Source: Candidatus Saccharimonadia bacterium (lineage in GTDB: Bacteria; Patescibacteriota; Saccharimonadia; UBA4664; SCTI01). Taken from it: a DNA stretch of 64,000 nt. Positions 12,633 through 64,000 of the stretch are shown piece after piece; the first letter of the stretch is position 1; each line of letters starts with the position of its first letter. The stretch lies in contig JBKJLI010000003.1 in the NCBI GenBank assembly GCA_046597065.1, positions 2,807 to 66,806 on the forward strand, written 5' to 3'. The translations under genes and the position numbers were made by a program. The notes beneath the pieces were generated by a model, which saw nothing but the letters and a program-made list of their open reading frames with translations, made no database searches and was not told the origin of the DNA.

Positions 12633-12655
12633 TTTTGATACTCATACAATCCGGC

Positions 12656-13360: not shown

Positions 13361-13614
13361 GATTGCCTTTCCTTAATGTTATTGTGGCAGCCCATTGTTA
13401 AATATTTATTAAATTCTTTCCTTGTTATTCTATTGCCTCCCACATGAGCTGTTCATATTGCGATAATACAGATTGAAGATTAATTATTCCTTTACTATGC
13501 CACTTTTTATAAACTGTTAAGTAAATAAAAAACGCCTATCGCGCTTTTTTCTTAACATAAACAATACAGATTAGACTAGATAATACTCATAATGATTAGT
13601 GAAGCAGAGTTAGC

Positions 13615-13899
13615 CTACAGGACTGAATGAAGCCATAAAAAGGTCAGGGCCCCAACAGCCATTACGCCGCGAATTGATTCTAATACTAGGGTCTGACCGG
13701 TATGGCGGGCATTGGCCAAAACGATAATGCCAATGGCGCCGACTAAATTCAAAAAGTGATACCAAGCACTATCAACCGAAATCGCATTAAAAGTTGTTAA
13801 ACCGTAAGCGAGCAATATTGCAAACGCTCCAATCCAGCCGATTTCATCTATTATGCGATTCTTGGCACTTTTACTCATAGCGTAATCATACCAAAGCAT
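13615..13899 (-). CDS. Small integral membrane protein (hypothetical, 3 TM)
   Basis: 94 aa with three hydrophobic helices. No recognisable motif. Confidence 0.35.
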   Translation of the reverse strand: MLWYDYAMSKSAKNRIIDEIGWIGAFAILLAYGLTTFNAISVDSAWYHFLNLVGAIGIIVLANARHTGQTLVLESIRGVMAVGALTFLWLHSVL

Positions 13900-13929
13900 A
13901 AGCAGTTACCCAGTAAGTTATAATATTTA

Positions 13930-15165
13930 TTGAATAATTTAATACTCAATCAACCAAGGAGCCGCGTGGCCACCCCTAAATCTGCAGACCATTCCCGACC
14001 ATACTTGGTAATCCCAAAACTAATTGAACAGCCTACTTGGGGTGGCAGCTACATAGCCACAGCCAAGGGCTGGCACAGTCGTCCGCTACTGGCTAATCGT
14101 AAGATTGGACAGTCCTATGAGCTATTTTCTGGCAGCAACCTGTCGCTGGCTAAGGACTCTAGGGACTTAAATTTTATCGGCGAACTAACCGATCGAGACG
14201 CCGTGCAACTCCCGACAAAGGTTTCAAAAACCGTTTCATTAGCCGACCTATTAGCGATATCGCCGACTGAAGTACTTGGCAAAACCATTGCCAAACGCAC
14301 TGGCAACCAGATGCAACTATTAATTAAGTTTACTCAAGCTAGGGGAAATTCATTCCAGCTACACCTAAAAGACGGTGAATCTCACCCCCGATGGACTCCT
14401 AAACCCGAGTCATGGTACTTTTTTGAACCCGGCATTGCCACGCTGGGAGTTAAGCAGAATATCGACTGGCAAGCCTACGAAAGCGCAACCTACCAACTAG
14501 ATCAGGACATTAGATCTATCGGGCACAGGCTGGCATGCAATGAAATAAGCCATGCCAAAGCACTGAAAGAAGTTAATGAACACCTCAACGCAACCAACCC
14601 CCATCAACACGTAAACTTGGTTCATGTACCCAAGAACCAGTTACTAGATTTAACCGCCGGTGGAGTTCATCATTCCTGGGAGGAAGACGACCAAGCGGCG
14701 CCACTGGGAAATGTTTTATATGAGCTACAGTTAGAGGCTATGGATGATGTTTCAACTCTGCGAAGCTTTGATAAGGGGCAAATGGGGCCAGACGGATCCA
14801 CGCGAGATCTGCACATTAAAGATTATTTCGATATTATTGATCGCTCACCTGCTGCTAACGAACCAAAAACCTACCTGCGCCAACCACAGCAAATTATTAC
14901 CGGCAGCGATTATACTCTCGACCAGCTAATGAACAGCTCCTATTATGGCCTCGACCGTCTTAACTTCCACGATTCCAAAGCCATATATACTCGCAATATT
15001 GATCAGTTTAACCACGTATTCGTTAAAAATGGTCGGATTAAACTTTCAGCTGGCGATGTTGAACTAACTATTACCGGCGGGCATTCAGCTTTCATACCGG
15101 CAGTAGTCAAAAATTACGCTATCAGTGCCCAAACTCCCGACACTGAAGTATTAATTAGTTACTGA
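13930..15165 (+). CDS. Cupin-fold sugar isomerase-like protein, possible type I phosphomannose isomerase
   Basis: PTWGGSY near the N-terminus and a QLHLKDGESHP region loosely resemble the PMI WG motif and QVHP(N)..E metal-binding motif. Context with manC/gmd/fcl in this window supports a GDP-mannose route. Assignment is weak. Confidence 0.3.
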   Translation: MNNLILNQPRSRVATPKSADHSRPYLVIPKLIEQPTWGGSYIATAKGWHSRPLLANRKIGQSYELFSGSNLSLAKDSRDLNFIGELTDRDAVQLPTKVSKTVSLADLLAISPTEVLGKTIAKRTGNQMQLLIKFTQARGNSFQLHLKDGESHPRWTPKPESWYFFEPGIATLGVKQNIDWQAYESATYQLDQDIRSIGHRLACNEISHAKALKEVNEHLNATNPHQHVNLVHVPKNQLLDLTAGGVHHSWEEDDQAAPLGNVLYELQLEAMDDVSTLRSFDKGQMGPDGSTRDLHIKDYFDIIDRSPAANEPKTYLRQPQQIITGSDYTLDQLMNSSYYGLDRLNFHDSKAIYTRNIDQFNHVFVKNGRIKLSAGDVELTITGGHSAFIPAVVKNYAISAQTPDTEVLISY

Positions 15166-21963: not shown

Positions 21964-22017
21964 ATAAACCCACCAGCTATAGACTTAGTTATTTCTGTAT
22001 ACGTATCCTAGCGGCAA

Positions 22018-22659
22018 CTATTTTACCAACAGGTACCCAACCATCCAGAATTCACCGATAGATGCTGGGATGACTAATAAATCTGTTGCGGCTTTTTGGT
22101 CTGGCCATAAAACCAAAATGAATGCCGCCAAAATGTACCCTATACCGCCTAAAATTAAAAAACCCGATAGTATCTTAGGCATCTTGGCTTTGTACACAAG
22201 ATAACCCATTGGCACCAGCCACAAGCCAAAGAACAAATTAGACACCAGCCATATGGTTTCGTGAGTATTAAAAAGTCTGTAGGCAGAAGCAGCCAAATCA
22301 CCAGAAGTTGCGGCGTTCAGTGCACTTAGCCAGAAAGCCGATGATATTAATATTGCCGTAGCATTAATTAGCCCAAAAGCAGCCAGTGTTCCTGCAGCAA
22401 ATTCGTTCGTCTTTTTGAAAAGCTTATAAAACCAAATTGCCGTTAGTGCCTGGAATACTACCAGAGCTAATTCAGCTGCAATCCCAATACGTGCCAGATT
22501 CTCTTTATCAATTAAGTTAGCTAAGGTTGCGGCTGCATTGCCATCTACATAAAGCTGATTTCTGGCAAATAGAAACGAAACCACCCCCGATAAGGCTAGC
22601 CCTAGATAAAATAATCCCGTTAAGCGCTTGGTCGTGAAGAATTTTTTTATACCGTTCAT
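22018..22659 (-). CDS. Polytopic membrane protein (DUF4386-like, hypothetical)
   Basis: 213 aa with 5-6 TM. Confidence 0.35.
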   Translation of the reverse strand: MNGIKKFFTTKRLTGLFYLGLALSGVVSFLFARNQLYVDGNAAATLANLIDKENLARIGIAAELALVVFQALTAIWFYKLFKKTNEFAAGTLAAFGLINATAILISSAFWLSALNAATSGDLAASAYRLFNTHETIWLVSNLFFGLWLVPMGYLVYKAKMPKILSGFLILGGIGYILAAFILVLWPDQKAATDLLVIPASIGEFWMVGYLLVK

Positions 22660-22750
22660 TGTTGATATATTAACAAAATTTTCTTAATAATTATTTAATC
22701 TTAGCTCGATGCTCCCAAGCCGTTATTGAAGCTAAAACTGCAATCGCTAA

Positions 22751-23143
22751 CTAATCTCGATTAACGCTGACCAGTTTTATAATTCCCCAGACTATTAATG
22801 CGTACACCAACATCGCTACAATAGTCGCCGTTTCGAATACCGAAACGCTAATATTTCCCTGGGTAGTTGGTGTAGTAAAAATACCCAGGAATGGGGTTAC
22901 AAAAGGTTTGCTAAAAGTATAAATTGAGCTTACAAAACTATTGGCCGAATTGGCTCCTAGCATTTTAAATACAAAACGAAGTCCAAGTATTACCTCTATT
23001 GCTCCCAGCAAAAGCCAAATGGAATTTACAATCGTCCGCTGTGTCCCTGCGCTGCTAGCCGTTGAAGTACTTTTTCGCACTACTTGGGTGTCGCCTTGCT
23101 GAGTCACTTCAGTCTGATTTACGGTTTCTTCTGTATCAGCCAT
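22751..23143 (-). CDS. Membrane protein with S/T-rich N-terminus (YggT-like, hypothetical)
   Basis: 130 aa with two to three TM. Weak resemblance to YggT/Ycf19 topology. Confidence 0.3.
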   Translation of the reverse strand: MADTEETVNQTEVTQQGDTQVVRKSTSTASSAGTQRTIVNSIWLLLGAIEVILGLRFVFKMLGANSANSFVSSIYTFSKPFVTPFLGIFTTPTTQGNISVSVFETATIVAMLVYALIVWGIIKLVSVNRD

Positions 23144-23233
23144 GTCACACTCCTTGGTTATAAAGTTTCTTAAACTCTAATATAATTATACTCCTGTTGG
23201 TAAAGAGTTAAATTAACCGAATTATCATTGCGG

Positions 23234-23479
23234 CTACTTATGGCTTTGTGAATGTTTTTGTTTTGCTAAGGCCAGCCAGCCCAGTGCATTGATTGTAATT
23301 GTTACGGCAGAAAACCACAGCGACAGACTTACGTAAGTGATCGCAAAAGTTATTAAGACGCCGGCTGTGATTAAGCTGGTACTAAATGCTGGTTTGTTTT
23401 CACTGCGTAACGATGGAACCAGTGCCAGCGAAAAAATTAACGAGCCGGCTGCCAAAACAAAATCTTGCCATTTATACAT
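23234..23479 (-). CDS. Small membrane protein (hypothetical, 3 TM)
   Basis: 81 aa hydrophobic ORF lying immediately upstream of, and opposite in orientation to, the ABC-F gene (23545..25200). Confidence 0.3.
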   Translation of the reverse strand: MYKWQDFVLAAGSLIFSLALVPSLRSENKPAFSTSLITAGVLITFAITYVSLSLWFSAVTITINALGWLALAKQKHSQSHK

Positions 23480-23544
23480 GCCCTAATCATATCAAAAGCG
23501 ACTGGCGGGGTTCCTGCCATATAACCTGTGATAAGATTACGGCT

Positions 23545-25200
23545 ATGATTCTGGGTGTCGACATCGCGGAAAAAACGATTGGCGCCAAGGAACTTTTCCG
23601 AGGGCTAGAGTTTAGGTTGGAATTAGGCGAAAAGGTCGCTATCATCGGCCGCAATGGCGTTGGCAAAACAACATTGTTTAACATGCTTGCTGGCAACGAT
23701 AAAATTTTTATCGGCGAGGTCAAGGGTAGGCGCGGGCTTCGAATCGCCGCCACCAAACAAGAATTTCACGGCACTGGCGAGGTGACCTGCTACGACTATA
23801 TCTTGGACAATATTCCGGAATTCAGGGTACTACAAAAGATAATCGATGCATATCCTGAAAGCAAAGATCATAGCCAAAAAAATATCGCTGCTTATACCGA
23901 CGCCTTAGAGCGATTTTCGCAGCTCGATTACTTTTCTATTAAAGACAGAGTTTTTAATGCATTAGCGGTATACCAAATTGGACCCGAAGCGGCATTACAG
24001 CGGTTTAAAAACCTTTCTGGCGGACAAAAGCGGTTCGCCGATTTAGTGCGAGTAGAGCTATCTTACTCCGATCTGGCACTTGTAGATGAACCTACCAACC
24101 ACATGGACTATGTGGGCAAAGCAGCCTTTATTAACTGGCTCAATGATTCCTCACACGCTGTAGCGGTTATCACCCATGATCGCGACGTGCTTGCCAATGT
24201 CGACCGCATAATCGAGATTAAAGACAAGAAAGCCTACAGCTTTAATGGCAACTATCATGAGTATTTACGGCTTAATAACAGTTCAACGGTCGATAAAATT
24301 ACCGACTACGAAACCGGCCAGCGAACCCTAGATAATCTTTATAAGCAGTTAATAGCCGCTAAAACTAAAAAGTTAAACGCCAGCTCTGACTCGGCCAAAA
24401 AGTTTCGGATTATGGAGGATCGACTGCAACGGCAGTATGATGATTTGAAAGCTCAAGTCTCTAGGCCCGATTTCTGGATCGACCAAGAAAATGTCGCCAT
24501 GATGCCTGGCAAGGTTTCCGAAAAATATCATAAATATAAATCCAAAAATATCCGCATACTTGGTCATCAGGGCATCGATTCAATTCACGAATTACTCCGA
24601 ATTAATGGCCTTTCCCTTGGTTACGATCACCCACTCTTTGATTACGTTAGTTGTAATGTTTCCTCTGGAAGCCAAATTCAAATAAAAGGCCGCAATGGCG
24701 CTGGCAAAACAACCTTGGTCCGAGCCATTATTGCTGCATCCACTAGCGAAACTCCCCCATCTACTACCTTTGCGGGAGAGATCTTGCCTCATAAAAAAAT
24801 CAAAGTGGGTTTTTACGAACAGGAAATCAGCGAGCATTACTTACGCCTAACGCTTGCCGACGCAATTAAACAGACCTACCACGATAAGGACGTGCCAATC
24901 AATGACCAAAAGGTTAAGCAGATAATGGCCGACTACTTATTCGATCCTCAAATCGATGGCAGGCTTAGGGTAGAGCAGCTTTCGGGTGGGCAAAAAGCCC
25001 GTTTGCAAATAATTAAGATGCTTTGCAATAAACCGAATCTACTCATTCTGGACGAACCTACTAATCACCTAGACCTGCCTTCGGTAGAAGAGCTAGAAAA
25101 CGCCCTCACCAAGTATGATGGAGCAATAATCTTTGTGTCACACGACACCTTTTTTGCCAAAAACTTTGACGCCGAAGTCATTCAAATTGGGGAACAGTAA
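23545..25200 (+). CDS. ABC-F family ATPase (tandem ABC domains, no TMD). Likely ribosome-associated translation factor or ARE-type protein.
   Basis: Two NBDs (GRNGVGKTT...LSGGQKR...LVDEPTNHMD and GRNGAGKTT...LSGGQKARL...ILDEPTNHLD) with an inter-domain linker. The real start is probably ATG ~23545 (MILGVDIAEK...), not the track start at 23386. Confidence 0.85.
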   Translation: MILGVDIAEKTIGAKELFRGLEFRLELGEKVAIIGRNGVGKTTLFNMLAGNDKIFIGEVKGRRGLRIAATKQEFHGTGEVTCYDYILDNIPEFRVLQKIIDAYPESKDHSQKNIAAYTDALERFSQLDYFSIKDRVFNALAVYQIGPEAALQRFKNLSGGQKRFADLVRVELSYSDLALVDEPTNHMDYVGKAAFINWLNDSSHAVAVITHDRDVLANVDRIIEIKDKKAYSFNGNYHEYLRLNNSSTVDKITDYETGQRTLDNLYKQLIAAKTKKLNASSDSAKKFRIMEDRLQRQYDDLKAQVSRPDFWIDQENVAMMPGKVSEKYHKYKSKNIRILGHQGIDSIHELLRINGLSLGYDHPLFDYVSCNVSSGSQIQIKGRNGAGKTTLVRAIIAASTSETPPSTTFAGEILPHKKIKVGFYEQEISEHYLRLTLADAIKQTYHDKDVPINDQKVKQIMADYLFDPQIDGRLRVEQLSGGQKARLQIIKMLCNKPNLLILDEPTNHLDLPSVEELENALTKYDGAIIFVSHDTFFAKNFDAEVIQIGEQ

Positions 25201-25238
25201 TTAACTTTTTATGTTTATGATAGCTAGAACTGCCATAT

Positions 25239-25627
25239 TTATTTCAGCTTGAAGTCGAAAACCAAAAATGGATCGTCATCCTCGATCTTACGTCCAATAT
25301 AATCATAGTATCCCGATAGAACTTCACGCTGATGCTCTTTATCCTTATATGATTCATGTGTGCCTGTTTTGATGGGTATATTTTTAAAAATGGTCGTGGA
25401 TTTATCTTCAATCTTGGCCTTACCGACAATCTCCTTTGTGTCAGAGTTTTGAATGCTTACATTGTCTCCTACCTCGAGGTAGTCATATTTATTGCCGAAT
25501 CTGTACGTGGTTAGCTTCTTTTGCTCAAGGATAAATCGCACCAGCTCCGGCGCAAATGGAATTACATAAGCATCTGGACTGTACTCAGTAGGATTTATGG
25601 ATGTAGTATCCGGTACTCGGTAATTCA
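25239..25627 (-). CDS. ASCH (PUA-like) domain protein
   Basis: APELVRFILEQKKLTTYRF fits the ASCH signature (..I..G.KT.E.R). The start is probably the internal ATG ~25627 (MNYRVP...), because the conserved leader module occupies 25628-25686. Confidence 0.5.
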
Positions 25628-25686
25628 TGACCCCATGATAACAAAAACGACCTTTCGGTCGTTTAAGCATAAGTGCAATGGCTCAC
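25628..25686 (-). repeat. Leader module copy R5 (GAGCCATTGCACTTATGCTT-AAACGACC-GAAA-GGTCGTTT-TTGTTATCATGGGG)
   Basis: Shares the tRNA-Asn 3' flank sequence and the hairpin with R1-R3. Sequence is written on the minus strand. Confidence 0.7.
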
Positions 25687-25706
25687 CCTAAGGGACGATT
25701 TTCAAA

Positions 25707-26111
25707 CTATAATGACGGTCCAAGCCAATTACTGGGGATAGCATACTTCTCAACTGTACCAGCTGGAACATCACCGTTACCTTCAAAAATAATTGTCCAA
25801 GCGCCGTTCTGTTTTGATAAATAAATGTGACCGCCGCCGCCCTCTCCATTGGTCACTACATGCGCCAAGCTTGACTCCTTGTTCTCAATCTTGCAGTTAG
25901 TATTGCCCGTGCACTTTGCTGCTTTAAGAATTTGGTCGTCTTCACTTAAATTATTCTTAGTTTCGACTGCTTTAACTACAGTTTTTGTTGAATCATTGGC
26001 GACCTGACGTGCGGTATAAACGTATACTCCTCCGCCAACTAGCAAACTAGCTAGGAGGACAAATAATACTACTTCTAATCCGGAGAATCCTTTTTGATTG
26101 AGTTTTTTCAT
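25707..26111 (-). CDS. Type IV prepilin-like N-terminal domain protein (small pseudopilin/pilin)
   Basis: N-terminus MKKLNQKGFSGLEVVLFVLLASLLVGGG carries the class III signal G|FxxxE with Glu at +5, followed by a hydrophobic helix. Confidence 0.5.
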   Translation of the reverse strand: MKKLNQKGFSGLEVVLFVLLASLLVGGGVYVYTARQVANDSTKTVVKAVETKNNLSEDDQILKAAKCTGNTNCKIENKESSLAHVVTNGEGGGGHIYLSKQNGAWTIIFEGNGDVPAGTVEKYAIPSNWLGPSL

Positions 26112-30592: not shown

Positions 30593-32341
30593 TTAATTAA
30601 ACTGGGGCGTGGTCACAATCGTAAAGTCAGTACTGGCCTTATAAAAAGTACTGGTTGTATCGGTGCGGATAACCTTACCGCTTAAATCCACCACGTCACG
30701 ATAAAACACCGTTTGCGAAGGCTTGGTGGCATCGGCGTCGCCAGTTACAAAATAAGGCCCCCGTATCACTCCGGTTTTGGTTTTGGTGCCAAATAAACTA
30801 AAAGTTAATGTGGTGCCAGCCATGCGTGTTTGAATCAAAATGTAGCCGGGTGTGTCATTTTTAAACTTTAGATCCACCTGGGGGTAATAAACAGTGGCAT
30901 CAACACCCGGTACGCCATAAGGCGCGGTGTAAAACTCGTTGATGGCAAAGGCATGGTTGGTGCGCTGCACAATTGGCAGTCCGGCGGTTAGGGCCGCCCG
31001 GTACAGCGTGCTCGACACCTGGCACAAACCGCCGCCGTACTGCTTTTCTTCTTTAGTACCAATAATCACTAGTGAGGGTAGGTAGCCCTGGGCCGGTCCA
31101 ACATCGCCCAGTGCCGCCCCAAAACTAAACACCTCACCCGGTTTAATTAAAATGCCATCATAAATTGCCTGCCCCACTCGCACGTTGGTTAATCGCGCCG
31201 CCGAGCTTCCCGGAAAAGTGCTGTACCCCAGCCCGATCTGCTCTTTAAGCCCCAGCGTGTCCAGGTTGCCTTCATTAACCGCCGCCTTGGTGTTAGCTGT
31301 AACCAGGGCGATCGTGCGGTTGCCGTCTGGTTTTCCCAATGTCGCAATAATGCTATCGGTCGCCTTGGCCTCGTCAACTTTCAACCCGTCTTTGCTGGGT
31401 GATTCAACCACCAACTTGCCGCCGGACATCGAAAGCCCGGCGTTTTGAGGCTCGCGATTAACTTTTGCGGCCAGTTGCTGCACAAACACCTCTACCTTTG
31501 GCCGGCTGATAACCAGCTTTACATTGCCCTCATTGGGGTCCTCGTAAAACGATTTCAGGCCGGTTAGCATGTCGGTGCGATAACCGGCAGCGCTAACGTC
31601 TATCCAGCTTATTATCGAGGCTTGATCGATGGTTTGGCTAACCGCCTGCGCCGTGGCCGTTAGCGGCGCCGATACAAAGGTGGCGGCTTGATCTTTGGCC
31701 AGCGCCAAAGTGTCCTCATTAATACTGGGAGTAATTAAATAAACCGGCGCCTTAATTTCGGAATCATCCATTTGGCCAAGGCGCGAATTAATTAACTGCA
31801 CCAACTGCCCGCGGTTAACTCGCTTGCCGGGTTGCGACGGCTTTACCGATACCTGCCCGCCCTCAAAGCTCAACCTGGCATTGGCCACCGGGCTGGTAAC
31901 GTCAGTATCCACTTGGTCCAAAAATGGCGTTAAACTAGTGTCGTTATAGTTAAACCGCTCAATGGAAGAGTTGCGCGCCAAAATTGAGCGAGAATAAATC
32001 TTCAAACGGTTAATTAAACTACCGCTGCGACCGTAATCTAGCGCGGCCTGCGCCGCCGCCTCATCATACTTAATACCCAGGCCCGAAACTGGAATCCGCA
32101 AAGTGGTTTGGTTGTACTGAACCGCAACTTGCTGGCCTTGATAGTCTGCCGCCGCAGTTTTTATGGCCTCTACCGTTGCCGATTTGCTTAAGCCGCCCGC
32201 ATAAACCCCGTTTACGCTGACTCCAGGAAGCACCTTGCCGGCATAAACGCCTGCAAAACCAATTAACCCCAAAACCACAATCACCACGAGGGCAACCCCA
32301 ACGCCTAATAGATAATGAGTTTTAGATGAAAACGGTTGCAT
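30593..32341 (-). CDS. VanW-family protein (membrane-anchored, YoaR-like)
   Basis: N-terminal TM. C-terminal VanW-domain block QYGGGLCQVSSTLYRAALTAGLPIVQRTNHAFAINEFYTAPYGVPGVDATVYYPQVDLKFKND. Confidence 0.7.
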   Translation of the reverse strand: MQPFSSKTHYLLGVGVALVVIVVLGLIGFAGVYAGKVLPGVSVNGVYAGGLSKSATVEAIKTAAADYQGQQVAVQYNQTTLRIPVSGLGIKYDEAAAQAALDYGRSGSLINRLKIYSRSILARNSSIERFNYNDTSLTPFLDQVDTDVTSPVANARLSFEGGQVSVKPSQPGKRVNRGQLVQLINSRLGQMDDSEIKAPVYLITPSINEDTLALAKDQAATFVSAPLTATAQAVSQTIDQASIISWIDVSAAGYRTDMLTGLKSFYEDPNEGNVKLVISRPKVEVFVQQLAAKVNREPQNAGLSMSGGKLVVESPSKDGLKVDEAKATDSIIATLGKPDGNRTIALVTANTKAAVNEGNLDTLGLKEQIGLGYSTFPGSSAARLTNVRVGQAIYDGILIKPGEVFSFGAALGDVGPAQGYLPSLVIIGTKEEKQYGGGLCQVSSTLYRAALTAGLPIVQRTNHAFAINEFYTAPYGVPGVDATVYYPQVDLKFKNDTPGYILIQTRMAGTTLTFSLFGTKTKTGVIRGPYFVTGDADATKPSQTVFYRDVVDLSGKVIRTDTTSTFYKASTDFTIVTTPQFN

Positions 32342-32388: not shown

Positions 32389-33330
32389 CTACTTGAGTCG
32401 GCTCTCTATATTTCTCAGAACAGCGTGCTGCTCCTCGGTTTCAGCGTGTTGCCGCAATATCATCAAATTAGAATTGAGCCTAGCCTCAAGTATAGACAAG
32501 TCGTTCTCGTCACCCGTCGTGCGAACGTCTTCATAACCTGACTCCCTGGCTCGAAGAACCGCCTCTGCTTCCCGCTGAGCTGTATCAAACTGGGTTGGCG
32601 CCCTTCGAATCTGTTCGGGCTGCACTACAACATCGGGTAAAACACCACTCTCGGCGTCATATTTCCTACCAGCTTTCCATGCCGCCTCATCTCCTCTTAA
32701 AGTATCTAGCCGGCTTTCATATCTTTCCATCTGGGCGGCGTTTCTTAAAATACTAGCCTCATCCTCATCGCCAATCGCCTCGGCTACTCTAGCCTCTTCA
32801 TTAAGAGATTTTTCGGTTGCATGCAAGAGGGAGGCCCGAGAAAGCGCACTAGCCGCCGCTTCGGCCATCGCCCTAGCTTTTTCGGGGTCATCAACTCTAT
32901 GCTTTGACCCCGCTTCTGCTTGTCTTGGCTCTCCTGCGAGCTCTTGCTCCTCATCATAGATGGCAGCTGCAGCGTCCGCAGCCCTTGGCGCCTGCTCTCT
33001 TTTGGCAGCTGCTCGGTTCCGCTGTTTCTGAAGCTCCGACCCAAGCTTGGCTATTTCTTGCTTACGCTGACGACCGGCTTTTGTTAGCCCCAATCTGTCA
33101 AGAAGTGTGCTTTCTTCTCGAGCTTTTTCGAGTGACGCTTCGAACTTACCCGCCAACCTTTCGCTTGCCTGAGCGTCAGTGATATAACGATCCATATGAT
33201 TAGCCGTCATTTGATCGCGACCTTCGTCCGTTTCACCGGTTTGTGCACCAACCTCGTGCCCTAAGTTTGCGGCTTCATTTTCTCCGGCTCGAAACTCTGA
33301 CTCTCCGCTAGATTCACCCTTTTCGGGCAT
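32389..33330 (-). CDS. Highly charged Ala/Glu/Arg-rich predicted coiled-coil protein (hypothetical)
   Basis: 313 aa of low-complexity charged helix-forming sequence. No catalytic motif. Preceded by a degenerate copy of the cassette leader module. Confidence 0.45.
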   Translation of the reverse strand: MPEKGESSGESEFRAGENEAANLGHEVGAQTGETDEGRDQMTANHMDRYITDAQASERLAGKFEASLEKAREESTLLDRLGLTKAGRQRKQEIAKLGSELQKQRNRAAAKREQAPRAADAAAAIYDEEQELAGEPRQAEAGSKHRVDDPEKARAMAEAAASALSRASLLHATEKSLNEEARVAEAIGDEDEASILRNAAQMERYESRLDTLRGDEAAWKAGRKYDAESGVLPDVVVQPEQIRRAPTQFDTAQREAEAVLRARESGYEDVRTTGDENDLSILEARLNSNLMILRQHAETEEQHAVLRNIESRLK

Positions 33331-33538: not shown

Positions 33539-34051
33539 CTAGCTAAGATCAAGTTTTCTTAGGTCATCGAAGCGATTCAATTGCACCGGAATCATATTGT
33601 CCGGCAGTTCATCTGACTTAAACCATCCGTACTCTGCCGTTTCATCATCTAATACGTCATTATGTTCAACTGGTCGTGCCAGAAAGCTTACAACCCAGCG
33701 ATGCTCACTATGCTTATCACCCGGAAAGCTATCTAAGTAAACGCCCAGTACCCGGCCCAACTCCACCGTCCAGCCGGTTTCCTCTTTGGTTTCCCTAATC
33801 GCGGTTGCGGCGGGCTTTTCGCCGTAGTCAGAGAATCCACCCGGTAGTGCCCAAGTTCCCTTCATCGGATCAATTGCCCTTTTTACTAACAACACCTCCC
33901 CTTTTTCATTTAATGTCAGGGTTTCGGCGCTGGCCGCATTCCTAACTAGCGGCCAAAGTATGCCATGAGTTTTACAGGTGGGCAATTGGTTATTGTAATC
34001 AAATTGGTCACCACATATATAGCACCTTTGAGGTATAGTTTTTTTGCTCAT
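33539..34051 (-). CDS. NUDIX hydrolase with N-terminal Cys4 zinc-ribbon, possibly a GDP-sugar hydrolase
   Basis: Nudix box GGFSDYGEKPAATAIRETKEETGW (G.5E.7REUxEExGU). N-terminal CxxC...CxxH ribbon. Start overlaps the manC stop, which is consistent with the gmm/wcaH role in GDP-fucose loci. Confidence 0.7.
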   Translation of the reverse strand: MSKKTIPQRCYICGDQFDYNNQLPTCKTHGILWPLVRNAASAETLTLNEKGEVLLVKRAIDPMKGTWALPGGFSDYGEKPAATAIRETKEETGWTVELGRVLGVYLDSFPGDKHSEHRWVVSFLARPVEHNDVLDDETAEYGWFKSDELPDNMIPVQLNRFDDLRKLDLS

Positions 34052-35175
34052 AATGAGAGTCCGTTTTTTTGCACTCGCCCAGACAGCTTCTTAGCCGCCT
34101 CGCCCACTAGCTGAGACTGCTCCTTGGCGCAAACCAACAATCCATCTGGTGTATCAACTACAATTACGCCCGATAGACCAATCACTACTACCGGCTTACC
34201 CTGGCTCATCACCATCACGTCATCGCTATCAATTAACTGCACGTCACCCTTAATGGTGTTGTTTTTGGAGTCACTCATCACATTATGCAAATCAAAAAAT
34301 GATCCAATATCAGCCCAGTCAAAACTACCGCTGACAACCATTAAATCCGGCACTTTTTCCATTAAGGCTGTATCAATTTGCTGACTGGGCAATGCTAAAT
34401 ATGACTGCTCCAGCTTTTTACCTTTAATAATGGCATCTTCGAGCGACTCATATCCCAGCATTAAGTCTTTTGCATGCTCCTTCATTTTAGCGAGAAACAC
34501 CGATCGAGGGGCGGCGAACAAACCCAAATTCCACAGGTAATTTCCGTCTTTCAAGTAGCCCTCGGCAACCGTTTGTGAGGGCTTTTCAACAAACTTCACT
34601 ACGTTGGAAACCGACATGCCTCCGCTTTGCTCCAACTCATCGGCCAGCTCCATATACCCAAACCCAGTGGCCGGATAAGTTGGTTTAATGCCAATTAGCG
34701 TTATGCGTTTGTGCTTAGTCGAGGTATTTCCAGCTACTTTTACCGTTTTAGCAAAGGCCGTTTCATCAGAAATGTGATGATCGGCGTGTAAAAACACCAC
34801 CGGTTCATCGTCGGGTTCAATAGTTTGCATATGTGCCATAGCGAGCAAAATGCAAGATGCCGTTCCGCGACGACCAGGTTCAACAATAATGTGTTTGGCA
34901 TCTAGATATGGAAGCTGTTCTGCTACTTCATTAGAATGCGACCGCTCGGTTATCACGTATATCTTACTTGTAACCAAACAAGCTCGCTTGTAGGTGTTCT
35001 GAAGCAGCGAACTTTGGCCGGTTAGTTTAAGTAAGTGTTTGGGATGGTTGCCTTGTGAAAGCGGCCACAGTCGCGTACCTGATCCTCCAGCGATAATTAC
35101 GATAATCATTTCTTGATTATACACGCCTATTTTTGTATAATCGTAAGCAGTTAGGGGCAAACAAATTGGCCGCAA
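34048..35175 (-). CDS. manC: Mannose-1-phosphate guanylyltransferase (GDP-mannose pyrophosphorylase)
   Basis: The track ORF start is 35175. The probable biological start is the internal ATG at ~35109 (MIIVIIAGGSGTRLWPLS...). Nucleotidyltransferase motif IIAGGSGTRLWPLS...PKHLL. A TATAAT box lies 8 nt upstream of that ATG. Confidence 0.8.
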   Translation of the reverse strand: MRPICLPLTAYDYTKIGVYNQEMIIVIIAGGSGTRLWPLSQGNHPKHLLKLTGQSSLLQNTYKRACLVTSKIYVITERSHSNEVAEQLPYLDAKHIIVEPGRRGTASCILLAMAHMQTIEPDDEPVVFLHADHHISDETAFAKTVKVAGNTSTKHKRITLIGIKPTYPATGFGYMELADELEQSGGMSVSNVVKFVEKPSQTVAEGYLKDGNYLWNLGLFAAPRSVFLAKMKEHAKDLMLGYESLEDAIIKGKKLEQSYLALPSQQIDTALMEKVPDLMVVSGSFDWADIGSFFDLHNVMSDSKNNTIKGDVQLIDSDDVMVMSQGKPVVVIGLSGVIVVDTPDGLLVCAKEQSQLVGEAAKKLSGRVQKNGLSL

Positions 35176-35717
35176 AAATATACAAAAACAAAACAGTTTT
35201 AATCACCCTCGTCGTCATCGCAGTCATAGCGATGGGGGCGGCCGTTTACGTTTATATTAAAATGCACCAAGAATCCGATTCTACTCCGGTAAATAAAAAC
35301 CTTGGTCAAGAAACCACTCAAACCAAGCAAAATGCCGGGCCGGCAACCGACAAAACCATTAACAATGGCTCGTCTACTGCGCCCGTGCCAAACCCTAGCC
35401 ATCCGGTAAGCAGCTTAGCCAAGCCAATAGGCCCCAACAATAATACCGGTACAGTAAGCCTATCCGGTGCCACCGGCATGGAGTCGGTTTGTCGTTCGGT
35501 ATCTGGGGCCAGCTGCTATATTCAAGCCAGTAAAGATGGAAAAACGATTAAGGTCTCAGTGGCCAAAACGGTTGGCAGCGATACAGCTAGTGACGGAGTC
35601 ATACTAGATTGGGATGCCAACCAGTTAACTGTCGGAACATGGATCATCCAGGCTGTAGCTAGTAAGGATGGCCAAACCGCCAGCTCTGATCCTCAAACAC
35701 TTAGGGTTAATTCATGA
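35133..35717 (+). CDS. Membrane-anchored S/T/N/P-rich protein with C-terminal Ig-like domain (hypothetical)
   Basis: The start is uncertain: TTG at ~35166 behind an AGGGG RBS, or an upstream codon. It has an N-terminal TM (VLITLVVIAVIAMGAAVYVY), then a low-complexity linker and an ~80-aa beta-rich C-terminal domain with a Cys pair. The stop overlaps the next gene's start. Confidence 0.45.
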   Translation: MYNRKQLGANKLAAKIYKNKTVLITLVVIAVIAMGAAVYVYIKMHQESDSTPVNKNLGQETTQTKQNAGPATDKTINNGSSTAPVPNPSHPVSSLAKPIGPNNNTGTVSLSGATGMESVCRSVSGASCYIQASKDGKTIKVSVAKTVGSDTASDGVILDWDANQLTVGTWIIQAVASKDGQTASSDPQTLRVNS

Positions 35718-38008
35718 AGCATTTATTAAAACTCCCCCTCTTACTTCTTGCCATCGCTTTCACCAGCATCATAAGTGCTGGCTCTGCACATGCTTATAGT
35801 AACTCTCGACTAATGGACGATGTTATTTTTGATAACTCTAATAGTATGAGTGAGAGTCAGATCCAAACCTTCCTAGCTGGAAAGGGGCCATGCTTAGCTA
35901 ATTACAGCGATGTTGACCCAAATTGGAATGGCACCACCTGGAGCTATACGGGTAGCGTGTCGGCCGCACATATTATCTACAAAGCTAGCCAACAATGGGG
36001 CCTTAATCCTCAAGTGATTATTTCGACCCTGCAAAAAGAAGAGAGTCTGATTACCGGCACCAGCTGCGACGCCTGGCGCTACAACTCAGCCATGGGATAC
36101 GGCTGTCCCGATTCCGGCGGCTGCAACGCCAAATACGCCGGCTTTACCCGCCAGGTACTGTGGGGCGCTTGGCAGTTAAAGTTTAATAAAGAACGCGCCT
36201 ACGGTAATACCGCCTGGGACGGCGACGGCGATATTGTCTATGTTGGCCTAATGACCGCCGGCGATCGGCGCCGCTGCACGACCTGCTCGCTGGTTAGCTA
36301 CGATGGCAACGCAACCATAGACGGCCAAGTTATCCATATGGACAATGGCACCACCGCCTCGCTATACACCTACACTCCCCACCTCGGCCAGTCATTCCCG
36401 GGGATATTTGAAGGCTGGTTTGGGAGTGTGCTTGTGCCAACGTATTCATGGCAGCTTGTTGATCAAAGAGTTAAAATTTATGGCACCAATACCGATTTTG
36501 ACCCCACTCCAGGTATTACTGCTGGCGACAGGTTCGTTATTTACTTCAAAGCTCTTAATACTGGTACGGCCACTTGGAGTAATAGCGGTCCCAGCCCTAC
36601 CAGGGCTGGGACTTCACAGCCCTATGATAGAACCAGCGTATTCTGTGAAGTATCTTGGATAAGTTGCAGTCGACCGGTGCAAATGCAAGAAGCCACCGTT
36701 TCCCCCGGCCAAACCGGTACCTTTATGTTCGCGGCCCAGGCTCCAGCCACGCCGGGTACATATAACGAGCGCTTTAATCTTTTGGCGGAGGGAGTCTCCT
36801 GGATGAGCGACATTGGGTTGTATTATCATCTCAAGGTCAACCCGGCTGATTTTAAATACTCACTTGTCAGCGATACGCTTCCTACGCAATTAGCTTCTGG
36901 GTCTAGTGGATCTGGAGCCGTTACTTTGCGCAATGACAGTAACTTCACTTGGTACAATGCACCTAAATTCCCAATCCGAATAGGGGCAACTTCGCCAAAT
37001 GATCGGGTTTCGGCTTTCCGAGACTCGTCATGGATAGGCTCGACGCGCCTGGCAAATCAAGCTGAGTTCTCGGTAGCGCCTGGCCAACAAGCGACATTCA
37101 CCGCCACCCTACATGCTCCTCAGGCTGCCGGTACCTACAATGAATCTCTTGGCCTGGTTGCCGATGGCATTGCCTGGGCCGGCCAATCCTTCAATCACCC
37201 CGTCACAGTAAAGCAAAACTATGATGCCAGCCTAGACTCAACATCAACGTCGATAATCTCCATGGGTGGAGCCGAACGTAAGCTGGTCACCCTTAAATAC
37301 TTAAACACTGGGCTGCTGACTTGGTCCAATGCAGGCGCAAACCCTGTTCGCATTAGTACCAGCTCACCAAGTGATAGAAGTAGTGGATTTTGCTATCAAA
37401 GTTGGATCGCCTGCCATCGACCCACCCAATTACTCGAAAGCTCGGTTGCACCGGGCCAAACCGGTACTTTTCAGTTTTATGTTGAGGGTCGTCCATGGTT
37501 TAATTCAAATCCATACTTTGAGAGCTTTGGCCCCATAGCAGAGGGTTTGGTAAGATTTGGAGCTGTGGCCCAAGTTCGAGTAAACTACACTCACCAGTCA
37601 TACTCGTGGAGTTTGACCGATCAATACGCACATACAGTTGGGCCCGGCCCAACACCTGTAGACATGGCTACCATGAGCCCTGGCCAGACCATCATTATCG
37701 GTTTTAAGGCTAGAAATACGGGTAGTGCTACCTGGCTCAATGACGGTGGTTTCCCGCTCAGAGTTGCAACATCGCGACCGACTGACAGATCAAGCGCCTT
37801 CTGTTCAAATACGTGGATCGCCTGCCATCGTCCGGCACAAATGCTCGAGGCCTCTGTGGCACCAAATCAGATTGGTACTTTTGAGTTTGAGTTTAAGGCT
37901 CCGACCGGCAGTCCGGGGCTACATAGTGAATATTTTGTACCAATCATCGAAAGCTACTCTTACCTAAGCGATATAGGCCTATATTATCGGACGAATGTCT
38001 CTCCATAG
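35714..38008 (+). CDS. Large secreted protein: signal peptide, N-terminal lysozyme/lytic-transglycosylase-like domain, and four tandem ~120-aa beta-sandwich-like repeats
   Basis: Signal peptide MKHLLKLPLLLLAIAFTSIISAGSAHA. N-domain has ASQQWGLNPQVIISTLQKEES, resembling the SLT consensus (A...G..P..L.AIA.qES). The same block recurs in the CHAP protein at 62413..63606. Each of four repeats carries NTG.ATWSN...DR.S.F...WI.C.RP.Q..E..V.PGQ.GTF.F...P...GTYNE.F.L.AEG. Confidence 0.65.
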   Translation: MKHLLKLPLLLLAIAFTSIISAGSAHAYSNSRLMDDVIFDNSNSMSESQIQTFLAGKGPCLANYSDVDPNWNGTTWSYTGSVSAAHIIYKASQQWGLNPQVIISTLQKEESLITGTSCDAWRYNSAMGYGCPDSGGCNAKYAGFTRQVLWGAWQLKFNKERAYGNTAWDGDGDIVYVGLMTAGDRRRCTTCSLVSYDGNATIDGQVIHMDNGTTASLYTYTPHLGQSFPGIFEGWFGSVLVPTYSWQLVDQRVKIYGTNTDFDPTPGITAGDRFVIYFKALNTGTATWSNSGPSPTRAGTSQPYDRTSVFCEVSWISCSRPVQMQEATVSPGQTGTFMFAAQAPATPGTYNERFNLLAEGVSWMSDIGLYYHLKVNPADFKYSLVSDTLPTQLASGSSGSGAVTLRNDSNFTWYNAPKFPIRIGATSPNDRVSAFRDSSWIGSTRLANQAEFSVAPGQQATFTATLHAPQAAGTYNESLGLVADGIAWAGQSFNHPVTVKQNYDASLDSTSTSIISMGGAERKLVTLKYLNTGLLTWSNAGANPVRISTSSPSDRSSGFCYQSWIACHRPTQLLESSVAPGQTGTFQFYVEGRPWFNSNPYFESFGPIAEGLVRFGAVAQVRVNYTHQSYSWSLTDQYAHTVGPGPTPVDMATMSPGQTIIIGFKARNTGSATWLNDGGFPLRVATSRPTDRSSAFCSNTWIACHRPAQMLEASVAPNQIGTFEFEFKAPTGSPGLHSEYFVPIIESYSYLSDIGLYYRTNVSP
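36440..38005 (+). repeat. Four tandem in-frame ~360-390 nt coding repeats (protein-level domain repeats) within the 764-aa secreted protein
   Basis: Repeats begin near residues 243, 372, 498 and 618. Conserved anchor residues are listed in the CDS entry. Nucleotide identity is low and the repeats are diverged. Confidence 0.6.
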
Positions 38009-38056
38009 CACTTAGGACATTTTACTGCTGAGCTGGTTTTTGGTAGAATCCCTGAT

Positions 38057-39010
38057 ATGTCGATCCCATCCCCAGTGTTTTGGAATAAGAAAAAAGTGCT
38101 TGTTACCGGCGGTAGCGGGTTTCTTGGCTCACGCTTGGTCGCTGAGTTGAATAAGCTTGGAGCCAATGTCTTCGCCCCGAGCCACAGCGAGTTCGATCTA
38201 GTGCATGAAGATCAAATTAAAAAAATGTACGCCAAATACCCCGAAATTGATACCGTTATTCATTTGGCGGCTGTTGTCGGTGGTATTGGCGCTAATCGGG
38301 AGCACCCCGGGTCGTTTATGTACGACAATCTCATGATGGGCACCCAGCTATTACATCAAGCTTATGTCAATAATATCCCCAAGTTTGTTGCTCTAGGAAC
38401 CGTTTGTGCTTACCCAAAACACACACCGGTACCCTTTAAAGAAGATGACCTCTGGAACGGCTACCCAGAAGAGACTAATGCTCCATACGGCCTGGCGAAA
38501 AAAATGATGCTTGTCCAAAGCCAGGGTTACCGAGAAGAGTATGGATATAACTCCATATTTCTGTTGCCGGTAAATCTTTATGGTCCTGGAGACAATTTTA
38601 ACCCGTCTAGCTCGCATGTTATACCTGCCTTAATCAAGAAGTGTGTTGATGCCGTTGAAAATAATCAAGACGAGATTGAGGTTTGGGGTGACGGATCAGC
38701 CAGTCGTGAATTTCTATACGTTGATGATGCCGTACGCGGCATAATTCTTTCAGCTGAGAAATATAATAAAAGTGAGCCAGTAAACCTTGGATCTGCCTTT
38801 GAACTAACTATTAAGCAGTTAGTGGATATTATCACTAGGGAAACTGGGTTTAAGGGAAAGGTTGTTTGGGATACTTCAAAGCCAAATGGACAACCTAGAC
38901 GTAAACTCGATGTATCTCGCGCCAAGAATGAGTTCGGTTTTCTCTCAAAGATCAGCTTCGACGAGGGCTTGAGCAAGACGATTGATTGGTACAAAAGGCA
39001 CCAGAGTTGA
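38057..39010 (+). CDS. fcl: GDP-L-fucose synthase (GDP-4-keto-6-deoxy-D-mannose 3,5-epimerase/4-reductase)
   Basis: Rossmann motif [10 protein letters not shown], catalytic Y..K (APYGLAKK), and blocks [53 protein letters not shown] closely matching Fcl. An extended -10 (TGGTAGAAT) lies upstream. Confidence 0.85.
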
Positions 39011-39828
39011 GCACAACTATCATAAGGCCAAGCCGTAAGCTAACAATTGACCTAGCTGAGCTTTGGCGATACCGAGAATTGTTCTACTATTTTGCCTGGC
39101 GTGACATTAAGGTGCGCTACAAGCAAACGGCTATTGGTGCAGGCTGGGCCATCTTTCAACCTTTCATCACAATGGTTGTCTTTACGCTATTTTTTAATAA
39201 AGTTGCAGGCATTCAGGCAAACGGCGCCATACCATACGCTATTTTTTCGTACTCTGGATTATTGTTTTGGCAGTACTTTTCTAACGCTTTAACCCGTTCG
39301 AGCAATAGCCTGGTTGATAATCAGTCGGTAATAACAAAAATCTACTTCCCGCGGATTATCCCCCCCATTTCTAGCACCATTGTGGCTCTAATTGATTTTT
39401 TCTTTGCATTTTTAATTTACCTTGGCCTGCTTGTCTACTTCCAAATATCCCCTGGAGTAGTCGGCATTCTGTTGTTTATACCCGCAATTATTATTACCTT
39501 TATTGCGGCGGCCGGTTTGGGATTATATCTCGCGGCTCTCAACGTTAAGTATCGCGACGTCAAGCAGGCGCTGCCATTTTTTATTCAAACCGGGCTTTTT
39601 TTAACTCCCGTTATCTACCCTGTGTCTCTTGTGCCGGAAAAATACCAGTGGTTGCTGTACTTAAACCCGATGACTGGAGTTATTACTACAATTCGCCATA
39701 CTTCACTCCACGTTGGTGATCTCAATTGGGGTCTAGTTAGTATTTCAGTGATATCCGCTCTCCTGATGTTTGCATTTGGGCTGTACTACTTCAAGACTAA
39801 AGAACGTGAATTTGCGGACATAATATGA
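38986..39828 (+). CDS. ABC-2 type polysaccharide exporter permease (Wzm/TagG-like)
   Basis: 280 aa with 6 TM. N-terminal [24 protein letters not shown] block typical of Wzm/KpsM-type permeases. Confidence 0.8.
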
Positions 39829-41081
39829 CAGATCCAGTCGTTCAAATTAGCGGTCTGTCCAAGGTGTACCAAATTGGCCATGAGGACCAGGTTGATCGAG
39901 GATCCTTGCGAGAAGCGATTACTCGAACCCTTAAAAAGCCGAGCGAGCTTTTCACCGGCCACCGAGTAGCCCAAGAGAAATTCTGGGCTCTTAAAGATAT
40001 AGCCGTGGAGATCAACCGAGGTGATGTGGTTGGCCTGATTGGCAGAAATGGATCCGGCAAGTCAACCCTACTAAAAATACTGTCGCAGATTGTCGAGCCG
40101 TCTGAAGGAGAGGTAATACTCAACGGCAACAGCGCCAGCTTGCTTGAAGTTGGCACCGGTTTTCACCCTGAGCTCACCGGGCGCGAAAACATCTATTTTA
40201 ATGGTTCGATTTTAGGTATGAGTCGTAAAGAAATTGAAGCTAAATTTGCCGAAATTGTCGAGTTCTCGGAAATTGAAAGATTTCTCGACACACCGGTGAA
40301 GTTCTACTCTTCTGGTATGTACGTACGTCTAGCATTTGCGGTCGCGGCTCACCTTGAGCCCGATATCCTCATTGTCGACGAGGTGCTGGCGGTCGGTGAT
40401 GCTGCATTCCAACGTAAAAGCTTAGGCAAGATGCGTGACGCCACTCAAAATGCGCAACGTACGGTTATTTTTGTAAGCCACAGCATGGAATCCATTCAGA
40501 GTATTTGCAATAAGTGCATTTGGCTAGACTCTGGTAAGGTGATCGCCATGGGAGAAACCTCCAAAATAGTTGAGCGGTATATGTCGTCGTCAGGAGCACT
40601 CGAGCGCCCGGCGCTTAAAGATCGTACCGACCGCAGGGGTAATGGCGATGTTCGCCTAACAAGCCTAAAGGTACAAGACTCAATTCAAGAAGACAAGCGA
40701 GTTTCCCTGAACCTGCAGTTAAATAATCTAACATCAAGTGTGTTCAAGGATGCAAAGCTATCGATCGACATTTACGATGGTACGGGCGTCCACGTGAGCA
40801 ACCTCTTAAACTACACCGTCAAGCAGCAAGTGAACATTAAACCTGGCTCAAATAAGATTCAAATTGAAATAAGCAATTTCTGCCTAGCCCCCGGGCGCTA
40901 CAGTCTGAACGTTTTTATTGCGTCAGACCAATTAAATAAGAAGCTATTCGATTGGGTCGAAGATGCCTCCCAACTCTTGGTCCAGCCATATGATTTCTAC
41001 GGCACAGGTAGCGTCCCGAGCTTTAGTGGTAAGTTTGTATACTTAGACTATGATTACAAAGCTGAAAAACCGAGTCGGTAG
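39825..41081 (+). CDS. ABC polysaccharide exporter ATP-binding protein (Wzt/TagH-like) with ~170-aa C-terminal extension (candidate carbohydrate-binding domain)
   Basis: NBD with GRNGSGKST, LSGGM-like YSSGMYVRLAFAVAA, DEVLAVGD, H-loop SHSM. A predicted beta-rich C-terminal domain follows (RLTSLKVQDS...FVYLDYDY). Confidence 0.8.
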   Translation: MTDPVVQISGLSKVYQIGHEDQVDRGSLREAITRTLKKPSELFTGHRVAQEKFWALKDIAVEINRGDVVGLIGRNGSGKSTLLKILSQIVEPSEGEVILNGNSASLLEVGTGFHPELTGRENIYFNGSILGMSRKEIEAKFAEIVEFSEIERFLDTPVKFYSSGMYVRLAFAVAAHLEPDILIVDEVLAVGDAAFQRKSLGKMRDATQNAQRTVIFVSHSMESIQSICNKCIWLDSGKVIAMGETSKIVERYMSSSGALERPALKDRTDRRGNGDVRLTSLKVQDSIQEDKRVSLNLQLNNLTSSVFKDAKLSIDIYDGTGVHVSNLLNYTVKQQVNIKPGSNKIQIEISNFCLAPGRYSLNVFIASDQLNKKLFDWVEDASQLLVQPYDFYGTGSVPSFSGKFVYLDYDYKAEKPSR

Positions 41082-60383: not shown

Positions 60384-60410
60384 CGGCTGCCGTTTAAATA
60401 AGATCAGACC

Positions 60411-63977: not shown

Positions 63978-64000
63978 GTGATTGCCTCGGTCATTTTTCC

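Follow-up and report, generated by a model that had tools for sequence, protein, structure and literature searches.

A conserved gene pair encoding a secreted lysozyme-like, NBR1/FW-repeat protein and a predicted membrane-anchored Ig-like partner in a Saccharimonadia surface-glycan cluster

Secreted, modular lysozyme-like hydrolases are an already known kind of bacterial protein. Members of glycoside hydrolase family 73 (GH73), such as LytB of Streptococcus pneumoniae, Atl, AtlE and SagB of Staphylococcus aureus, Acp of Clostridium perfringens and Auto of Listeria, are secreted and combine a catalytic domain with a repeat array. In systems of the SagB-SpdC and FtsEX-PcsB/CwlO type the action of the hydrolase is set by a membrane partner, SagB itself being a lysozyme-fold glycosidase. 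EtgA-type enzymes, the genes of which belong to the clusters of envelope-spanning machines, make local openings in the wall, and in Bacillus subtilis autolysin genes adjoin teichoic-acid genes. Several GH73 enzymes act in daughter-cell separation (e.g., PMC4633669). Here we analyze a 64,000-nucleotide stretch of Candidatus Saccharimonadia bacterium (assembly GCA_046597065.1, contig JBKJLI010000003.1, positions 2,807 to 66,806, forward strand), hereafter the window, which carries a pair of overlapping open reading frames (ORFs). ORF1 codes for a small, predicted membrane-anchored protein with an immunoglobulin (Ig)-like domain, and ORF2 for a predicted exported protein with a lysozyme-like head and four repeats. 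Based on sequence and structure models, and with a probability of roughly 0.5, we interpret ORF2 as a peptidoglycan-cleaving glycosidase acting on the cell's own envelope, with repeats that would target a wall polymer and with ORF1 as a tether or control element.

ORF2 (35714..38008, +; 764 aa) opens with a Sec-type signal peptide (residues 1-27; 35714..35794, +), recognized by inspection: the N-terminus reads MKHLLKLPLLLLAIAFTSIISAGSAHA, with predicted cleavage after AHA, and continues with YSN. The mature start YSNSRLMDD is kept immediately after the A-x-A site in ORF2 homologs, congruent with the signal peptide proposed in an earlier note on this DNA, which was made from the sequence alone. 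The head domain follows (residues 28-243, ~216 aa; 35795..36442, +). Queried as a single sequence or as a profile, it matched nothing in Pfam, NCBIfam, PHROGs or the PDB sequences. The Glucosaminidase family (PF01832) was absent from ORF2 at E<=1, from the head alone at E<=10 and from 62 diverse family members at E<=0.001, and the soluble lytic transglycosylase (SLT) family PF01464 gave no match for ORF2, the head alone or the 62 members. An AlphaFold2 model of the head, obtained with a 23-sequence alignment, reached a predicted local distance difference test score (pLDDT) of 90.2 and a predicted template-modeling score (pTM) of 0.88. The modeled fold is a lysozyme-like alpha+beta arrangement that is superposable on solved GH73 domains, and it equally agrees with the lysozyme-like fold of GH23/SLT enzymes; the nearest structures are peptidoglycan enzymes, with SagB-SpdC (6u0o) among the Foldseek matches. 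Thus, the lysozyme-like head that had been suggested is borne out at the level of the fold, though it lies far from solved structures: Foldseek returned no match at E<=0.001, and the template-modeling (TM) score was at most 0.45. The head stands apart from all solved structures and can be assigned neither to GH73 nor to GH23. Judged by its modeled fold, it represents a sequence family that is new to the lysozyme superfamily.

The conservation pattern of the head points towards an active enzyme. The candidate catalytic acid, Glu109 (36038..36040, +; motif [LM]-[QE]-K-E-x-[SG]-L), is invariant in 147 of 147 distinct head-family sequences and lies at the C-terminal end of helix 72-83 (head-model numbering), as in lysozyme-type enzymes. 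Position 133 (36110..36112, +), a candidate second carboxylate, is Asp in 139 and Glu in five of the 147 sequences and hence acidic in 144 (98%). It resides in the motif A-x-G-Y-G-C-P-D-x-x-x-C, inside a loop between C131 (conserved in 145/147) and C137 (147/148), and may have a catalytic role. A second carboxylate as well conserved as this would favor a hydrolytic mechanism over that of a transglycosylase with a single acid. Q147, Y218, Y220, T221 and P222 are also invariant or nearly so among the 147-148 distinct head sequences, and together the family is recognized by the signature LQKE-x-S-L, A-x-G-Y-G-C-P-D-x3-C and T-A-x-L-Y-x-Y-T-P. The block ...STLQKEESLIT..., read earlier as a soluble lytic transglycosylase consensus with a catalytic Glu-Ser pair, is indeed present, and its first Glu is the invariant E109. 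The Glu-Ser reading itself does not stand: E109 is followed by Gln in 90 of the 147 sequences, by Glu in 41 and by Ser in only nine (Ser occupies position +2 in 100), so that Glu-Ser is not a feature of the head family.

Downstream of the head, ORF2 harbors four N_BRCA1_IG/FW-like repeats of ~125 aa, all on the forward strand: repeat 1 (residues 255-378; 36476..36847), repeat 2 (379-502; 36848..37219), repeat 3 (503-628; 37220..37597) and repeat 4 (637-764; 37622..38005). Their pairwise identity of 37-47% (BLASTP E 2e-11 to 4e-42) is far beyond chance, and the alignment recovers the tandem organization and the motifs listed in the earlier note. The Trp residues of ...TW.N and ..SWI.. are conserved in all four, and a third Trp is found in repeats 1 and 2. 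From the family guess made at that time, the NBR1-like half is upheld, with Pfam assigning the repeats to PF16158 (N_BRCA1_IG) at 62 bits (E 9e-17; cut-off 28) and with E as low as 2e-26 in relatives. The alternative identity, CARDB (PF07705), was discarded, having no Pfam match to ORF2 at E<=1. ORF2 orthologs possess from two to five repeats. In one related locus, L016, the head gene is directly followed by two further genes (L016:7726-10260 and L016:10260-12719) with three copies each of the ORF2-type repeat, one protein containing a Peptidase_S8 domain (1.2e-47) and the other an Amidase_2 domain (1.5e-12). These copies were detected at E ~1e-118 to 1e-122 by a hidden Markov model (HMM) of the repeats derived from the window, and PF16158 scores 69.6 bits in the S8 protein and 52.7 bits in the Amidase_2 protein. 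Amidase_2 is an N-acetylmuramoyl-L-alanine amidase domain and as such peptidoglycan-specific. Through these fusions, the repeat array is a shared module on three types of hydrolase. We find it highly improbable that ORF2 is a non-catalytic adhesin or lectin with a glycan-binding head, and that the pair forms a membrane-tethered surface fiber. Arrays of two to five beta-sandwich repeats next to an anchored Ig-like partner do resemble adhesin architecture, and no catalytic family model matches the head, but an unvarying E109 at a lysozyme-type helix end, the 98% acidic position and the invariant Tyr, Thr, Pro and Gln constitute the pattern of an active enzyme, and the repeats co-occur with genuine hydrolase domains.

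ORF1 (35166..35717, +) is probably 183 aa in extent, starting at a TTG codon; its longest form in the ORF list (35133..35717, +) initiates at TTG 35133 and has 194 aa, and the residue numbers 20-45, 96-194 and C120/C128 used below refer to this long form. The start at 35166 is favored since the resulting N-terminus, M-AAKIYKNK, matches the MAKKIYKNK of aligned homologs and since AGGGG is located 8 nt upstream; TTG 35133 falls within the promoter-like site described below. Hence the coordinates given previously for the two ORFs agree with the ORF list, except that the start of ORF1 is probably 35166 and not 35133. The protein begins with a basic stub, KIYKNK, preceding a transmembrane anchor, VLITLVVIAVIAMGAAVYVYIKM (35196..35264, +), which is a helix at residues 20-45 in the AlphaFold2 model. 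Next comes a disordered linker of ~50 aa (35265..35417, +), enriched in the residues S, T, P, N and Q, with pLDDT ~50 and without secondary structure, whose length and sequence differ among aligned homologs. The C-terminal part is an Ig/fibronectin type III (FnIII)-like beta-sandwich (35418..35714, +) with pLDDT above 90 across residues 96-194 and a fold matching solved Ig/FnIII domains. Following the positive-inside rule, the predicted topology is N-in and C-out, and the invariant Cys pair of the sandwich, C120/C128, fits the proposed extracytoplasmic location. The small anchored Ig-like protein noted previously is consequently recovered in the model. The 17 homologs are of similar size (~160-190 aa) and none has a Pfam domain. 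We considered whether ORF1 is a detached copy of an ORF2 repeat and rejected the idea, as BLASTP detects no similarity and the repeat HMM matches ORF2 alone in the window. Neither sequence nor fold relates ORF1 to the lysozyme-inhibitor families PliG, MliC/PliC and Ivy.

The stop codon of ORF1 and the start codon of ORF2 overlap as ATGA (35714..35717, +), indicative of translational coupling, and the linkage of the two genes recurs in relatives, one such pair (P0022) coming from an animal-associated Saccharibacteria MAG (metagenome-assembled genome). In all eight distinct contexts recovered with ORF1 homologs, a head-plus-repeats gene is situated directly downstream, usually overlapping, and is recognized by the head HMM at E 1e-79 to 1e-103. 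Conversely, in all five contexts from distant head homologs the head gene is preceded by a small gene for an unannotated product that is hydrophobic near its N-terminus; three such products are homologous to ORF1 (E 7e-13, 1.5e-22 and, as a partial match, 1.4e-09), and two correspond by architecture only. A genome scan with the single ORF1 protein as query yielded one locus only. A metagenome scan with the head profile produced 571 relatives, from which 80 loci were retained; 63 head genes had sufficient upstream sequence for a pairing test, with 155 other long genes of the same loci as controls. An anchored ORF of 164-213 aa ends at the start of 43 of the 63 head genes, and 38 of these 43 match the ORF1 HMM, compared to 13 controls with such an upstream ORF (odds ratio 23, p=7e-19). 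Every one of the 41 ORF1-like ORFs in the metagenomic loci abuts a head gene, 31 of them with the same NTGA overlap. The secreted two-gene module proposed in the earlier note is thus conserved among relatives, though not universally. Unpaired head genes occur mostly in high-GC contigs, and a few have a different, larger anchored protein upstream. Four loci (L071, L074, L075 and L076) encode, in place of the ORF1-like gene, a protein of 300-370 aa with a conserved GY[FT]GTT.LR motif, which an N-terminal hydrophobic segment precedes in three of the four; it may represent an alternative partner family.

Upstream of the pair, a promoter-like TTGATT-17-TATAAT (35113..35141, +) is placed in the ~56-bp divergent region between ORF1 and a ManC-like gene. 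It is the best consensus match (10/12) within 34800-38300; such sites are however not more frequent in the region than in shuffled sequences, and only its position is suggestive. The terminator scan found no terminator-like site 3' of ORF2, and the next gene starts 48 nt further on.

The surroundings of the pair are dominated by surface-glycan genes. The ManC-like mannose-1-phosphate guanylyltransferase gene (34048..35109, -; NTP_transferase 4e-37 and ManC_GMP_beta-helix in Pfam) is divergent from ORF1. Its longest form extends to 35175, but ATG 35109 gives 353 aa, where homologs have 349-359 aa; the ORF is probably over-extended, and a start at 35109 leaves the above gap of ~56 bp before TTG 35166. 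On the other flank, directly 3' of ORF2, Pfam recognizes a GDP-sugar epimerase/reductase, an ABC-2 permease and an ABC ATPase with Wzt_C (38057..41081, +), and a NUDIX gene neighbors the ManC-like gene on the side facing away from the pair. The ManC-like neighbor recurs in relatives, whose contexts contain the same or equivalent surface-glycan genes, often together with VanW/PG_binding_4 and in one locus with an LCP-family gene. When 11 distinct contexts of relatives were scanned with Pfam, the head gene was inside glycan biosynthesis or export clusters in 10. The 59 genes flanking the pair in the 43 paired metagenomic loci agree, their most frequent Pfam families being GT2 (9), GT1 (8), NTP_transferase (7), GDP-sugar dehydratase/epimerase (6), Polysacc_synt_2 (4), WsaF (4), DUF2142 (3) and PMT_2 (3). 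The flanks of unpaired head genes show a like trend (GT1, NTP_transferase, Wzy_C, ABC-2 and Polysacc_synt).

Several observations were made in the same neighborhood. A VanW/PG_binding_4 gene beyond the ManC-like gene (window 30593..32341, -), identified from the synteny of relatives, is shared with loci L001, L002, L004, L007, L009 and L016, and a LexA-like gene is often found beyond it. Between the VanW/PG_binding_4 and NUDIX genes lies an ORF of 313 aa (32389..33330, -), very charged, acidic and without a Pfam match, which is missing from the otherwise syntenic relative L001.

Exopolysaccharide operons often carry a dedicated hydrolase, a glycosidase or lyase. The embedding of the head gene in glycan clusters, in the window, in 10 of 11 contexts, in the 43 paired loci and in unpaired ones, as well as the lectin-type tails of the head family (ricin B and B_lectin, see below), would accordingly be expected if the head shortens or releases the cluster's surface polysaccharide or determines how long its chains become, with the repeats binding the polymer and ORF1 holding the enzyme at the export site. 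We nevertheless judge this function unlikely. The clusters vary in export route and sugars, with Wzm/Wzt in the window and Wzx in relatives, and with WsaF, mannosyltransferases and UDP-glucose dehydrogenase in others, yet the putative active-site residues are invariant, arguing for one common substrate. In addition, the structures closest to the head model are those of peptidoglycan enzymes, and ORF2-type repeats also occur joined to a peptidoglycan amidase domain. Taken together, constant catalytic residues alongside variable tails and clusters fit a substrate that stays the same, peptidoglycan, and a bound ligand that changes.

The head family is large. A first protein search returned 31 relatives, mainly from metagenome-assembled genomes (MAGs) of Patescibacteria and Saccharibacteria and one from a Thermoleophilia MAG, and a profile search of 1.84 billion representatives detected 5,343 clusters (50% identity) at E<=0.001, 3,348 of them at E<=1e-30. 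The source names encountered for members all read "hypothetical protein", save one Thermoleophilia entry named solely for its Ig-like tail. The family also occurs in high-GC contigs of actinobacterial type, one of them 2.8 Mb in length, and no annotated relatives were found in phage or plasmid records. Other tails joined to the head include DUF5648, ricin B, B_lectin, CARDB (3 of 62 other head-family proteins in Pfam), ChW, LGFP and Big_5; a survey of endolysins regards DUF5648 as a domain with putative cell-wall binding (10.64898/2026.04.26.720912). Three representative proteins (P0049, P0050 and P0051) have three or four head copies in tandem, and a tandem pair of head genes is present on one high-GC contig (L060:3-1280 and 1446-2925). 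Our literature searches found no description of the head family or the gene pair.

Two other putative wall enzymes are located at the end of the window, as had been noted: a CHAP protein (62413..63606; Pfam 2.2e-11) and, as its upstream neighbor, an M23 peptidase (63573..; 2.2e-32). The head had further been thought to be shared with the CHAP protein, which we could not substantiate. Neither BLASTP of the head with the CHAP N-domain nor the head HMM, run on the CHAP protein with all filters off at E<=1000, gave a match, and the best local match in hhalign was the very 24-residue block pointed out earlier, at a probability of 0.4% (E 0.14). The resemblance is therefore a short helix-Glu motif and no more, and a shared domain was rejected. 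Homologs of the CHAP N-domain were absent from the protein database, from tblastn searches of plasmids and phages and from the metagenome scan; neither PDB sequences nor Pfam matched at E<=10, and an NCBIfam MltF match at E 0.066 is the sole hint. The M23 and CHAP genes overlap in one run (61709..64000, -) with a gene for a Big_5 protein (61709..62431), the 240-aa product of which is hydrophobic near its N-terminus and contains an Ig-like domain of the Big_5 family, without detectable kinship to ORF1. This run constitutes the window's second arrangement of hydrolase and small anchored Ig-like protein.

The presence of these additional muralytic genes, and the origin of the closest relatives in Saccharimonadia and Patescibacteria MAGs, would also suit an enzyme employed as a weapon or entry tool against the actinobacterial host wall of epibiotic Saccharimonadia, ORF1 then being an immunity or inhibitor protein that guards the wall of the producer. 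Work on Saccharibacteria has speculated that host glycans are the targets of envelope proteins whose domains bind or degrade glycans (PMC10633639), and an enzyme directed at the host would become a candidate factor in epibiotic life. We consider this scenario quite unlikely. The head family reaches beyond epibionts, into high-GC contigs and a Thermoleophilia MAG, and the gene belongs to a housekeeping envelope-glycan cluster rather than being placed beside a secretion or contact apparatus. ORF2 has an ordinary Sec signal peptide, and the upstream, translationally coupled position of ORF1 is no less to be expected of an assembly partner than of an immunity protein. The evidence, above all the high-GC occurrence and the association with the organism's own surface-glycan clusters, thus leans away from the host-wall breaching raised in the earlier note.

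Returning to a peptidoglycan-cleaving ORF2 directed at the own envelope, the following mechanism can be envisaged. ORF2 would be exported via Sec, and its head would most likely cleave the beta-1,4 glycan backbone of peptidoglycan, employing Glu109 as acid catalyst and possibly Asp133 as second carboxylate. The four repeats would serve as a targeting array for a cell-wall polymer, plausibly the polysaccharide made and exported by the neighboring genes. ORF1, its synthesis coupled to that of ORF2 by the ATGA overlap, would span the membrane once and present its Ig-like domain outside on the ~50-residue linker, where it may bind ORF2 and keep the enzyme near the membrane, restrain it, or both. 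Cleavage of the wall would thereby stay confined in space and keep pace with the export or attachment of wall glycan as well as with growth or division, much as for an autolysin with a membrane partner. In this scheme we infer what the enzyme cleaves, that the repeats act in binding, the contact between ORF1 and ORF2 and a self rather than host target. Certain findings weigh against it. No sequence model of a peptidoglycan hydrolase in Pfam or NCBIfam matches the head, hhalign of the head profile with Escherichia coli FlgJ yields a probability of 0.1%, and E109 could not be placed, residue by residue, on a known catalytic Glu. About one third of the head genes are without an ORF1-like partner, and the ORF1-ORF2 contact is deduced from gene linkage. 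Finally, the eukaryotic FW domain binds proteins (PMC9233695) and is known in this capacity, not as a wall-binding module.

A broader version of this scheme, which we put forward tentatively and regard as rather doubtful, is that the pair is an unrecognized two-component envelope system, widespread in the candidate phyla radiation (CPR). The ORF1-type partner would position and gate the enzyme, peptidoglycan would be opened locally for the export or attachment of the cluster polysaccharide, and the variable C-terminal modules would read the glycan of their own cluster. If true, this would tie peptidoglycan cleavage mechanistically to the assembly of secondary wall polymers in monoderm bacteria.

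As to the remainder of the window, the GC fraction dips to 0.40 at 12001..14000 and ~0.42 at 22001..26000, with ~0.47-0.50 elsewhere. Adjacent ORFs at 59277..61457 (+) have translations that, judged by eye, resemble dnaN and recF, so that the window may be located near a replication origin.

How does the pair relate to the described systems? In common with GH73 enzymes, the head positions its Glu, E109, at a helix end. However, only ~127 of 223 residues superpose, with 12% identity, there is no Glucosaminidase or FlgJ match, and the head displays its own signature. The order of domains also differs from LytB, where the catalytic part is C-terminal, whereas the ORF2 head is N-terminal. With the GH23/SLT enzymes MltF, MltC, MltE and EtgA and with goose-type lysozyme, the head has the helix-Glu arrangement in common, but it lacks an SLT Pfam match and the defining Glu-Ser pair. 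EtgA may nonetheless offer a functional parallel to a hydrolase gene inside a glycan-export cluster, and the linkage to a polymer-making locus is reminiscent of the autolysin genes of B. subtilis. LytA/LytB-type choline-binding autolysins similarly join a catalytic domain to tandem repeats for a secondary wall polymer; their repeat family is different from that of ORF2, for which the ligand is putative.

The pairing of a lysozyme-fold glycosidase with a membrane partner in SagB-SpdC resembles, by analogy, ORF2 and ORF1. Yet SagB is self-anchored and SpdC is a polytopic CAAX-type protein, whereas ORF2 would be soluble following cleavage and ORF1 single-pass with an Ig-like ectodomain; the systems have no sequence relationship, and the ORF1-ORF2 interaction is a proposed one. 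PliG, MliC/PliC, Ivy and the type VI secretion immunity protein Tsi3 are, like ORF1, small, extracytoplasmic, beta-rich and sometimes membrane-attached proteins that pair with a lysozyme-fold enzyme.

The repeats, in turn, share the family model PF16158 with the FW domain of NBR1. Bacterial FW domains exist (PMC3357945, PMC9233695) and have been described as single C-terminal domains on cytoplasmic XRE regulators (PMC3357945), in contrast to the ORF2-type repeats, which are predicted to be extracytoplasmic and are present in tandem arrays of two to five on three kinds of hydrolase head. An extracellular targeting role is thus likely for bacterial NBR1/FW-like repeats, which until now have been considered chiefly in connection with autophagy receptors and XRE regulators. 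Because Pfam, NCBIfam and PHROGs contain no model of the head family, it would escape surveys of wall hydrolases that cover CPR bacteria and some Actinobacteria, and its linkage to an anchored partner and to surface-glycan clusters provides a testable hypothesis for the control of wall cleavage in minimal cells. Compared to the established systems, what is new here is a large head family without a sequence model, a conserved anchored partner, a systematic placement in glycan clusters, and tandem FW-like repeats on the outside of the cell.

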